Source: Gamaleyavirus NAN33P5. From it: DNA of 64,000 nt. The position numbers and the translations under genes were made by a program. Each line of letters begins with the position of its first letter. The first letter of the stretch is position 1. The notes below the pieces were generated by a model. That model was not told where the DNA came from, ran no database searches, and saw nothing but the letters and a program-made list of their open reading frames with translations. Shown piece by piece: positions 23,129-24,518 of the stretch. Location of the stretch: the sequence record OZ035750.1. The stretch is one strand, 5' to 3'.

Positions 23129-23364
23129 TAGTGACTTTAACGCAGTCAACGAGGCAGGCCGTCAAACTACTATCACTATAAGGTTAAGCGACCGTGGGTT
23201 GATAGCCCGATAGTAGTAAGACGTAGGTTTGGTTTTTTAAGTGTTACCTTCACTAGCGAAATTCCCGTCGAGGGGAATAACAATACATCAGCAGACACTG
23301 GACTGTCTTACCAGTGTTGTCTTTAGAGTGCTATGCAATCAGGACTATGTTACTGCTGAATGGA

Positions 23365-23438
23365 TGTCCACTACTGGATTTGAACCAGTGACCTTCCGAT
23401 TATTAGTCGGTTGCTTTCCCAGTCTAAGCTAAGCGGAC
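23365..23438 (-). tRNA. tRNA (anticodon read by hand as AAU, unusual; identity uncertain)
   Basis: Manual cloverleaf on minus strand: acceptor GTCCGCT/AGTGGAC (7 bp, one G-U), D stem GCTT/AAGC with GG in loop, T arm ACTGG-TTCAAAT-CCAGT, 7-nt anticodon loop CTAATAA with U33; no encoded CCA. Confidence 0.5.
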
Positions 23439-23444
23439 ATAATA

Positions 23445-23520
23445 TGGTTACCCGGGCAGGATTCGAACCTGCGTCCTAGCTCGTTTACTAGTGGGGCTTT
23501 ACCACTAAGCCTACCGGGTA
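23445..23520 (-). tRNA. tRNA-like gene with irregular anticodon arm
   Basis: Acceptor TACCCGG/CCGGGTA (7 bp perfect), D stem GGCT/AGCC, T arm GCAGG-TTCGAAT-CCTGC, encoded CCA; anticodon arm pairs only as CTAG/CTAG with an 8-nt loop (or 5 bp plus 6-nt loop). Confidence 0.4.
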
Positions 23521-23884
23521 TTAATAGGTGAGTCATGCCAGGCTCTAACTGGCTCCTTCTTCGCAATCCTCACATACCCCTACATAATTATTGCGTTAAG
23601 CTTTTTTGTTTAAGTTTAAGTGAAGGCGTTCTTGCTGACTCATAATAGGGTGGGCATTTGACGAATGACTAGTTCGTTACTACCCGTTTGCCATAAGTAC
23701 CTGGCGACTTTGGTTTGAGATGGGAGTCCGAGTCCTGTACAGCCTTACCGTCTCCACATTGGCAGCGTATCTAGAATAGCACTTCCGGGTACGGATTTAA
23801 CTGTTACATCTCAAATGTGGTAGGGGCGTCCAGAGGTTTCATCTGGTACTTACACCGTCGTATTTACGACTTACCCCCATTGTT

Positions 23885-23955
23885 TGGTTGCAGGTGGAGG
23901 AGTTGAACCTCACTTCACATACAGGTGTGGAAGCCTGTAGCATAACCGTATGCTC
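23885..23955 (-). ncRNA. tRNA-like fragment (T arm plus 3' acceptor strand plus CCA; 5' partner not found)
   Basis: Minus strand ends TGAGG-TTCAACT-CCTCC-ACCTGCA-A-CCA; no complementary 5' acceptor strand located by eye. Confidence 0.2.
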
Positions 23956-24002
23956 ACCCACAATAATTCTTTCAATTCAGAGTAGCACTGTTGCAGTCGT
24001 CA

Positions 24003-24082
24003 CTGCCCATAGGTGAGGACTCGAACCCCACAATACCGTCGGTTTGCAACGTCGCTGTACCTTTTCGCGTTCTATGCAGTGC
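24003..24082 (-). ncRNA. tRNA-like element with extended terminal stem
   Basis: T arm TGGGG-TTCGAGT-CCTCA; 5' and 3' ends pair over about 10 bp (CACTGC+ATAG with CTAT+GCAGTG) rather than a canonical 7-bp acceptor. Confidence 0.2.
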
Positions 24083-24092
24083 TACTTTGAAT

Positions 24093-24216
24093 TGGTTACC
24101 AGTGAAGGATTCGAACCTCCGGTTGGAGTCTATAGCTTACCGCAGCAGCCCTCCAATCTAGCGGTGTCACACTTAGTCCAAACTTGAACATGTCAAGCCA
24201 TCTCGTGCAACTGGTA
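24093..24216 (-). ncRNA. 124-nt tRNA-like RNA (perfect acceptor, T arm, CCA; oversized body)
   Basis: 5' TACCAGT pairs perfectly with 3' ACTGGTA, then A-CCA; T arm GGAGG-TTCGAAT-CCTTC; about 48 nt longer than a standard tRNA, with internal TTGGAG/CTCCAA stem. Confidence 0.25.
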
Positions 24217-24218
24217 AA

Positions 24219-24284
24219 TGGTTCCGGCGTCTGGACTCGAACCAGAACACTCATGCCGTGCACGACACTAGTACCTACACCGGA
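24219..24284 (-). ncRNA. 66-nt minimal tRNA-like RNA (acceptor, T arm, CCA; D arm apparently missing)
   Basis: 5' TCCGGTG pairs with 3' CGCCGGA (one G-U), T arm TCTGG-TTCGAGT-CCAGA, discriminator A and CCA encoded; too short for canonical cloverleaf. Confidence 0.25.
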
Positions 24285-24518
24285 AAAGTTGCCAGGGATT
24301 CCACCTGGCTCCATCTGTTTTTATAGTCACTCAGATATCGTCTGGACTTCCTATTGCCGTAGGATGTTGATAGAAATGAGAGGCTCTATCGGGGAGTCCA
24401 CTGTTTCCGGCGTTTCCAGGTAATTACTCTGGCTCCTTTCATACGCGGTTTCAGTCCTTAACTAGTATAGACTGACTCATGGCATACTCAGTGCACTCTC
24501 CGATAGCTCATAATAGGA

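Follow-up and report, generated by a model that had tools for sequence, protein, structure and literature searches.

Putative tRNA-scaffolded small RNAs, most of them apparently unable to decode, in a conserved array of a Gamaleyavirus genome

The transfer RNA (tRNA) clusters of phages are usually explained by codon supply, and recent work adds the escape from tRNA-cleaving host defences. In the engineered "tRNA scaffold", in the tRNA-like structures (TLS) of plant viruses and in mascRNA, the top half of a tRNA makes the attached RNA a substrate of tRNA enzymes and protects it from nucleases. Phage T4 produces from its tRNA cluster two stable small RNAs of unknown role, RNAC and RNAD, also termed species 1 and 2 RNAs (PMC3014915). 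YrlA RNA is a substrate of RNase P and of the CCA enzyme (PMC4201824). Here, we analysed a stretch of 64,000 nucleotides (nt) of Gamaleyavirus NAN33P5 (OZ035750.1), hereafter the window, whose positions are used throughout. An island of structured RNAs of about 1.45 kilobases (kb) lies on its minus strand (24540-23091), between a gp47-like gene and a strong terminator. The sequences and folds suggest that the island includes an array of one ordinary tRNA and at least five RNAs descended from tRNAs that would be unable to decode. Their closest analogues are RNAC and RNAD of T4.

An earlier note on this DNA had reported at least six canonical T arms on the minus strand. The motif GGTTCRANTCC indeed occurs at six sites in the 64-kb window, all on this strand and within 870 nt (23376-24243), where shuffled sequences lead to an expectation of 0.16 sites and contain two at most. 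The note had also mentioned paired acceptor stems and encoded CCA ends at several sites, and we found four (3' ends at 24219, 24093, 23885 and 23445) in which a 7-nt strand has a perfect upstream partner (7/7) and is followed by A and CCA. The region had been described as tRNA-like and free of open reading frames (ORFs). This is correct in that no ORF of more than 79 residues lies within 23100-24870, but the true extent is larger (about 24540-23091) and includes non-tRNA modules, i.e., a leader, element E, and modules X and Z.

With default parameters ARAGORN identified only two genes, Ile(AAT) at 23361-23439 and a unit at 23445-23520 with a 2-base "anticodon". We searched Rfam 15 at the gathering score, which is 29 bits for the tRNA model (RF00005), and at E ≤ 10. 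At the gathering score it matched 23365-23438 (62.4 bits), 23445-23520 (42.5 bits) and nothing else. At E ≤ 10 the tRNA model left unmatched the elements that we term A, B, C and E, and with neither setting did any Rfam family account for A, B, C, E, X, Z or the leader. The weak Rfam matches (Plastid-ycf2 antisense to the tRNAs, RAGATH-25 over the terminator, YrlA, Tymo TLS and mir-9413) were judged to be due to chance or to cross-matches with tRNAs. ARAGORN was also run in its transfer-messenger RNA (tmRNA) and mitochondrial modes and at relaxed thresholds. Its intron mode gave no further genes at the default threshold. The intron and permuted calls that appeared at relaxed thresholds only are not credible, because they span hundreds of bases, and the relaxed Leu, Ser and Thr calls for C, B and A were discarded for their mismatched stems. 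The outcome that would have refuted the earlier note, i.e., standard tRNAs only, was thus not obtained with ARAGORN and Rfam. The option of a tRNA cluster that merely needs algorithmic folding, raised in the earlier note, found no support, since the algorithms accept one standard tRNA and one unit with an aberrant loop only.

These two units had been taken for near-standard cloverleaves. We compared the window with 16 related phages (17 arrays in total), and the description proved right for the first unit only. This is a canonical tRNA-Ile with the anticodon AAU (23365-23438, minus strand as all elements described below). It has no encoded CCA, its thermodynamic z is -1.9, and its CUAAUAA loop is conserved in 13 out of 13 carriers. 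Anticodons with A34 are unusual for bacteria. Of the Ile codons in the window's long ORFs, 61% are ATT, and Ile-AAU therefore looks like an ordinary tRNA of the codon-supply type. The second unit, T2 (23445-23520, thermodynamic z of -2.2), has normal acceptor, D and T arms and ends in A-CCA, but its "anticodon" loop has six nucleotides (AAACNA) and its spacers are off register; the Rfam alignment leaves the anticodon arm unaligned. T2 is found in eight of the 17 arrays, and all eight carriers have the 6-nt loop, which reads AAAC(G/C/U)A and lacks U33. Its relatives are annotated as tRNA-OTHER or Undet.

The remaining elements depart further from the cloverleaf. Element A (24219-24284) is a tRNA-like RNA of 66 nt with an acceptor stem of seven base pairs (bp) that starts with U1-A72, a canonical T arm and A73-CCA, in which a single central hairpin with a 4-nt UGCA loop stands in place of the D and anticodon arms (z = -2.17). 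Element B (24093-24216) is an oversized tRNA-like RNA of 124 nt. It combines an acceptor stem of 7 bp, a T arm and A73-CCA with two elongated arms, a "D" arm that bears a terminal hairpin and an "anticodon" arm, and it lacks an anticodon loop. In element C (23974-24093), a long stem of 17-18 bp (AATTCAAAGTAGCACTG / CAGTGCTACTCTGAATT) encloses an additional hairpin and a small cloverleaf (24076-24008). The latter combines an acceptor-like stem of 5 bp with a D-like arm, a T arm and an "anticodon" loop of five nucleotides; there is no CCA. The thermodynamic z of C is -4.16; its T stem switches between GC and AU, and compensatory changes are also found in the long stem.

Element D (23885-23962) is a tRNA-like RNA of 78 nt whose acceptor, T and D stems have 8, 4 and 6 bp, respectively. 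The D stem is capped by a loop of 4 nt, the anticodon loop (CUUCCACA) has 8 nt, and the 3' end is A-CCA. D is below threshold in both programs: the Rfam model of tRNA-Sec gives 34.9 bits at 23888-23963 (gathering score 47), with the 8-nt loop and without a stem-loop variable arm, and ARAGORN sees D at a relaxed threshold only, with the 4-base anticodon UCCA. Three of the 17 phages carry D, some with the loop CUUCCACA and others with UUUCCCAA. Element E (23818-23879) is predicted to form a three-way junction, in which two hairpins join an acceptor-like stem (UGGGGGU/GCCCCUA); it ends in CCA on the 3' side and lacks a canonical T loop. Homologues of E with a covarying closing stem are found in KP8-like phages.

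A 7-nt anticodon loop with U33 and a conserved anticodon is thus found in tRNA-Ile only, and is lacking in T2, D, C, A and B. The combination of acceptor stem, T arm and N73-CCA is found in A, B and T2 (7 bp, A73-CCA) and, with 8/4 geometry, in D; A, B and T2 all begin with U1-A72 and have A73. The half that is kept therefore consists of the acceptor stem, the T arm and, in A, B, D and T2, A73-CCA. This is the part of a tRNA that is read by RNase P, the 3'-end trimming enzymes, the CCA-adding enzyme and the T-loop modification enzymes. The decoding half has been swapped for short capped hairpins (A, C and T2) or for long extra arms (B). All units have GG in a D-loop-like position, so that, by inspection, the elbow between T-loop and D-loop could form.

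Covariation in A and B is evidence for selection on these folds. The sets of sequences comprise 8 to 13 distinct members that are 94-97% identical, and the shuffle controls ignore their relatedness. In A (8 distinct sequences) 98.3% of the cells are paired and four pairs, in the T stem and the central hairpin, changed on both sides, which was reached by 4 of 500 shuffles; controls with slid positions gave 28-45%. The corresponding values for B (13 distinct sequences) are 99.8% of the cells and five pairs, three of them in the acceptor stem, one in hairpin 1 and one in the T stem, reached by 3 of 500 shuffles (26-48% in slid controls). The central 60 nt of B are invariant but for one position across two genera. 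There are at least two invariant G·U pairs in A and six in B, and the folds are therefore specific to the minus strand, because on the other strand these pairs would be A·C mismatches.

A BLAST search with 22900-24900 matched 252 phage records, the best of which were Gamaleyavirus of Escherichia and Klebsiella (88-98% identity). Each of the 16 relatives has between three and six T-arm motifs, all on the same strand, in 13 families. The array is built as a mosaic, in which cassettes that are present are 90-98% identical and the breakpoints lie at the unit boundaries. Among the 17 arrays, B is found in 14, A and tRNA-Ile in 13 each, and C in six (T2 and D were given above). Module boundaries coincide with a short repeated junction, (A)CCAATTC, and units start 0-3 nt from the preceding CCA, as in bacterial tRNA operons.

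Outside this set, A is present in N4, Gamaleyavirus and Kaypoctavirus, and B in KP8. The 1.5-kb gap between gp47 and gp48 of N4 (NC_008720, 32112-33632) is unannotated in RefSeq. It contains four canonical tRNAs (Asn GTT, Ser TGA, Thr TGT and Pro TGG, 50-77 bits), the leader with A, modules X and Z, and a long stem that resembles C and has a T arm inside. The Klebsiella Kaypoctavirus phages (KP8, BaqKoxi and VLCpiP4a) encode four to five canonical tRNAs, followed by B, the leader with A, E, X and Z. A, B and X are confined to viral contigs of about 70 kb (N4-like). Between the window and N4 the identity reaches 94% in the leader and A and 91% in X, against 66-85% in the flanking protein genes.

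Taken together, these results indicate that selection maintains the tRNA-like elements for their RNA folds and not as normal decoders. Their loops have 4, 5, 6 or 8 nt or are absent, and the "anticodon" positions vary between phages, which argues against decoding. For A, B and T2 the evidence favours, among the options left by the earlier note, that of tRNA-like RNAs with a different role, given the compensatory changes, the conservation above that of flanking genes in three genera and the retained CCA.

With slightly more belief than doubt, we read the locus as a minus-strand array of structured small RNAs that are scaffolded by tRNA halves, co-transcribed and processed by the tRNA enzymes of the host. 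The array would be transcribed as a single unit that ends at the terminator (23129-23091), and be cleaved at every unit by the enzymes with which the host matures its tRNAs. The tRNA half would serve both as a processing handle and as a nuclease-resistant scaffold, leaving stable, tRNA-shaped small RNAs. The actual function would be borne by the bodies, e.g., the 60-nt core of B and the UGCA-capped hairpin of A, and by the interspersed modules (leader, X and Z).

Several points weigh against this reading. We infer transcription, cleavage by RNase P and stability from sequence, and a promoter scan identified no promoter, its sigma-70-like matches being at chance level. B is thermodynamically ordinary (z = -0.21). 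The covariation rests on few events, in sequences that are few and closely related. In relatives the long stem of C holds at least six unrelated short inserts, which is compatible with decay. No module is essential, since none is universal among the relatives. Finally, the high identity with N4 could result from recent lateral exchange of cassettes and not from long-term purifying selection.

We consider neutral decay improbable as an account of the whole array. It would make the elements degenerating and functionless pseudogenes of a former tRNA cluster, which fits their common derivation from tRNAs, the frequent absence of modules and the existence of relatives with more canonical tRNAs (four to five good ones in N4 and KP8). 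The slot of C also holds short inserts that resemble eroded T arms, e.g., GGAGTTCAAAGGCC, and D is restricted to three phages in which its loops differ. Yet, decay should strike stems and CCA ends as it strikes loops, whereas the stems of A and B are 98-100% paired and show compensatory changes, the CCA ends are retained, and the core of B is invariant across two genera. Decay also fails to explain why A and X are better conserved than the adjoining protein genes and why N4 keeps A beside intact tRNAs. The degenerate tRNA remnants proposed in the earlier note thus hold as regards ancestry and perhaps for two elements: decay is plausible for the insert of C and for the rare D.

We give as little credence to the elements being punctuation and nothing else, i.e., cleavage signals for RNase P and RNase Z that release or stabilise the leader, X, Z and tRNA-Ile, or that insulate the downstream messenger RNA. 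Mitochondrial tRNA punctuation and MALAT1-mascRNA are precedents for such an arrangement. The top half of the tRNA, which is the RNase P/Z substrate, is the only part that is consistently kept, and the non-tRNA modules lie directly between CCA-ended units. But signals of this kind require neither the invariant 60-nt core of B nor the covarying central hairpin of A, and they do not require tRNA-like units placed back to back, as in A-B-C, with nothing in between.

It is less likely still that the array consists of DNA-level elements, such as sites of recombination and cassette exchange or origin-like hairpins, with incidental RNA folds. The repeated junction (A)CCAATTC at the module boundaries suits this explanation, as does the inverted repeat of C, which flanks at least six unrelated inserts and whose plus strand pairs no less well than its minus strand, with 18/18 against 16/18 in the window. 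A DNA-level or antisense role is therefore possible for this repeat. Against DNA-level elements, the T-arm motifs, the CCA ends and the numerous G·U pairs belong strictly to one strand, compensatory changes keep small helices for which there is no rationale at the level of DNA, and canonical tRNAs are interleaved in the same orientation. DNA-level elements would therefore account for the movement of cassettes, but not for the retention of folds.

Unusual but working decoders, with D as a quadruplet (+1 frameshift) or UGA-related suppressor and T2 as a recoding tRNA with a 6-nt loop, are very unlikely: the 8-nt loop of D (CUUCCACA, anticodon UCCA in ARAGORN), its 6-bp D stem and 8/4 shape, which are typical of tRNA-Sec and allo-tRNAs, and the 42.5 bits of T2 as a tRNA speak for them, but the putative anticodons are not conserved (CUUCCACA or UUUCCCAA in D, AAAC(G/C/U)A in T2), T2 has neither U33 nor a loop of 7 nt, A, B and C lack any anticodon loop, and no recoding site is known or was seen, although no systematic search was made.

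The tRNA-like units are accompanied by modules of other kinds. The leader (24289-24348, 60 nt) has two helices, AGYC/GRCT and GCCAGG-TGGAATC-CCTGGC, and its consensus is AGYCCAGACGATATCTGAGTGRCT...GGAGCCRG-TGGAAKC-CYGGC. We found it in at least 120 viral contigs from many unrelated types of phages, e.g., Salmonella 9NA, Shigella DS8, Klebsiella SopranoGao, and temperate prophages of Klebsiella and E. coli. Among 51 distinct sequences 92.7% of the cells are paired, where shuffles gave 86.5% and slid controls about 30%. One pair of the AGYC/GRCT helix is CG in 33 sequences and UA in 16, and in the hairpin both partners have changed in four pairs. A possible leader pseudoknot (ATCTG/CAGAT) shows no compensatory change, and five of the 51 sequences break one of its pairs. 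The leader has no Rfam match and no annotation; its prophage form occurs in 17 E. coli RefSeq genomes and is annotated as RNA in none of them. Elsewhere the leader is followed by long stems, CACAACAGGAAAGAGCACTG ... CAGTGCTCTTTCCGTTGTG, with highly variable inserts, and these prophage stems have a top (GCACUG/CAGUGC) in common with C. The 3' arm of the prophage stem contains UGCUCUUU, which is boxA-like. Judging from these sequences, the leader and the variable inserts held by stems are candidate new RNA families, widespread in enterobacterial phages.

Module X (23714-23815) is a structured RNA of about 100 nt that is not tRNA-like. Its closing stem covaries, with the variants GAGAUG/CAUCUC, GAGGUG/CACCUC and GGGAUG/CAUCCC. 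Covariation among Gamaleyavirus, N4 and KP8-like phages supports both helices of module Z (23288-23359), a closing stem and an inner hairpin. On its upstream edge the island carries a hairpin (GGGAGGATTCGTCCCCTCCC) and then CCTATTATGA (24508-24538), a block that is conserved in 16 out of 16 relatives. This unit, a hairpin and then CC(N)CCTATTA(T/A), occurs three times on the minus strand (24508-24538, 23677-23640 and 23556-23521), and two of the three hairpins are of the GGAGCCAG...CCTGGC type. From their sequence, such units could be promoters or AU-rich sites of the RNase E type. An intrinsic terminator, with a 13-bp stem followed by a run of T, ends the island (23091-23129).

The window belongs to the genome of a Gamaleyavirus coliphage (N4-like, G7C-like, Schitoviridae). 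The ORF of 3456 residues on the plus strand (11284-21654) is the virion RNA polymerase, the hallmark of N4-like phages. The island lies on the opposite strand, between the SSB, gp46 and gp47-like genes (25323-27095) and the gp48 and gp49-like genes (21935-22934). Just downstream of it, domain matches revealed a gene with a Tad2-like domain (Thoeris anti-defence 2, PF11195, 9e-24) and one with a PF13876 domain (N4 gp49/Sf6 gp66), at 21935-22450 and 22542-22934 on the minus strand. On the other side, the end of the gp47-like gene and the sequence downstream of it (25158-25361, minus strand) are 76% identical to N4 (positions 1086-1292 of the N4 piece). The N4 counterpart extends past the annotated gp47 and may correspond to a small unannotated ORF, hydrophobic in N4, or to another RNA.

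The annotation of the stretch is inconsistent among relatives, which have tRNA-Ile, -Xle, -Thr, -Val, -Cys, -Ala, -OTHER or -Pseudo, or tiny hypothetical ORFs only. Published tRNAscan results for near-identical phages list Ile-AAT, Undet-NNN and Cys-ACA, and in published genome reports the non-decoding units are given as "tRNA-Undet/OTHER" only or left unannotated. We found no relevant paper in the literature on tRNA-like RNAs in N4-like phages, phage tmRNA or the leader sequence.

Many relatives, and also DS8, carry a tmRNA-like piece that codes for a tag, in a slot that holds an unrelated stretch of 145 nt in the window. We located it in the comparison loci L007 (about 2390-2290, minus strand), L018 (1111-1219, plus strand) and L143-L145 (about 1120-1310), and also in L002, L008, L009, L014 and L016. 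It reads ...AUAAAUGCAAACGAUGAUGUUGUUCUGAUGGCGGCGUAAUAG and encodes the tag ANDDVVLMAA, with the in-frame variants ANDNVVLMAA and ANEEAYLMVA. The tag is followed by a minihelix ending in ACGGGGAACCA. The Rfam family tmRNA_permuted matches the piece with about 33 bits (threshold 47), and ARAGORN makes no tmRNA call. Its sequence suggests that it may be a phage mimic of tmRNA. KP8, which carries this piece, also encodes a tRNA-like RNA (locus L143, 714-788, plus strand) without an anticodon, with a 5-bp stem and a 4-nt loop (ACAG), and with G3:U70 and A73-CCA, i.e., the alanine identity set.

Our leading guess for the role of the array, given the cassette-like gain and loss of its units and the neighbouring Tad2-like gene, is that it may contribute to the takeover of the host or to counter-defence. 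The gain and loss of cassettes, the modules common to unrelated phages and the adjacent Tad2-like and PF13876 genes are pointers to a possible accessory role related to conflict. A bolder version, which we regard as rather unlikely, would make the locus a mobile array of RNA cassettes for counter-defence or the hijacking of translation. The anticodon-less scaffolded RNAs would act as decoys or inhibitors, and phage families would exchange modules according to the needs of the arms race. The targets of the decoys would be host factors that recognise the body or the CCA of tRNAs, e.g., anticodon nucleases, toxins that modify the acceptor end, and tRNA-sensing immunity. This version counts in the putative tmRNA mimic of the relatives (ANDDVVLMAA) and the leader, with its at least 120 unrelated phage and prophage contigs. 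The interest of the locus would be high if a role in counter-defence or in hijacking translation proved true.

Whatever the role, most units of a conserved cluster cannot, on their folds, decode and are nonetheless kept with compensatory changes in the model phage N4 and in two sister genera. If they are processed and stable, they would provide a tractable E. coli system to study what tRNA-shaped non-tRNAs such as RNAC and RNAD of T4 do, and a natural example of the principle of the tRNA scaffold.

The elements differ in what they have in common with described RNAs. They resemble canonical tRNAs (RF00005) in the 7-bp acceptor stem, the GGTTCRANTCC T arm, the GG in the D-loop-like region, the discriminator A and CCA. 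Scaffolds are engineered, and the natural TLS and mascRNA are eukaryotic, unlike the phage array; the match of Tymo_tRNA-like to D has only 20.9 bits (threshold 40). YrlA (RF02553) resembles C in having a long closing stem that carries a tRNA-like module with T and D arms, but C is not circularly permuted. We rejected the identification of C as a Y RNA: RF02553 scored about 20 bits against a threshold of 69, over the junction of tRNA-Ile and T2, and the motif GNCGAAN0-1G is absent by eye. There is no rsr/Ro60 gene among the ORFs scanned next to the island (gp47-like, PF13876 and Tad2-like), the rest of the window not having been searched. The tRNA-like domain of tmRNA resembles A and E, in that it keeps the acceptor stem, the T arm and CCA and replaces the anticodon arm by another helix. 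No element of the window has G3:U70 and no tag frame was found in the window, where ARAGORN made no tmRNA call by default and gave implausible tags only in relaxed mode. Hence, we also rejected the identification of these elements as tmRNA, the tag piece being found in relatives only.

The comparison with T4 is the closest. RNAC and RNAD are, like the RNAs of the window, small non-tRNA RNAs encoded head to tail with tRNAs, on the same strand, in a lytic coliphage. In the T4 rnaC (139 nt), a canonical T arm (CCGGGTTCGAATCCCGG) lies 9 nt before the 3' end, and the large body is unlike that of a tRNA, which is the design of element B. The T4 RNA differs in that CCA is not encoded and the acceptor strands pair imperfectly, and we noted no sequence similarity by eye. 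The array appears to be a variant form of phage RNAs that are already known but lack an explanation, set within a larger unannotated island whose conservation extends from N4 to KP8-like phages. In T4 there are two such RNAs beside eight good tRNAs, against at least five tRNA-like RNAs and one good tRNA in the window.

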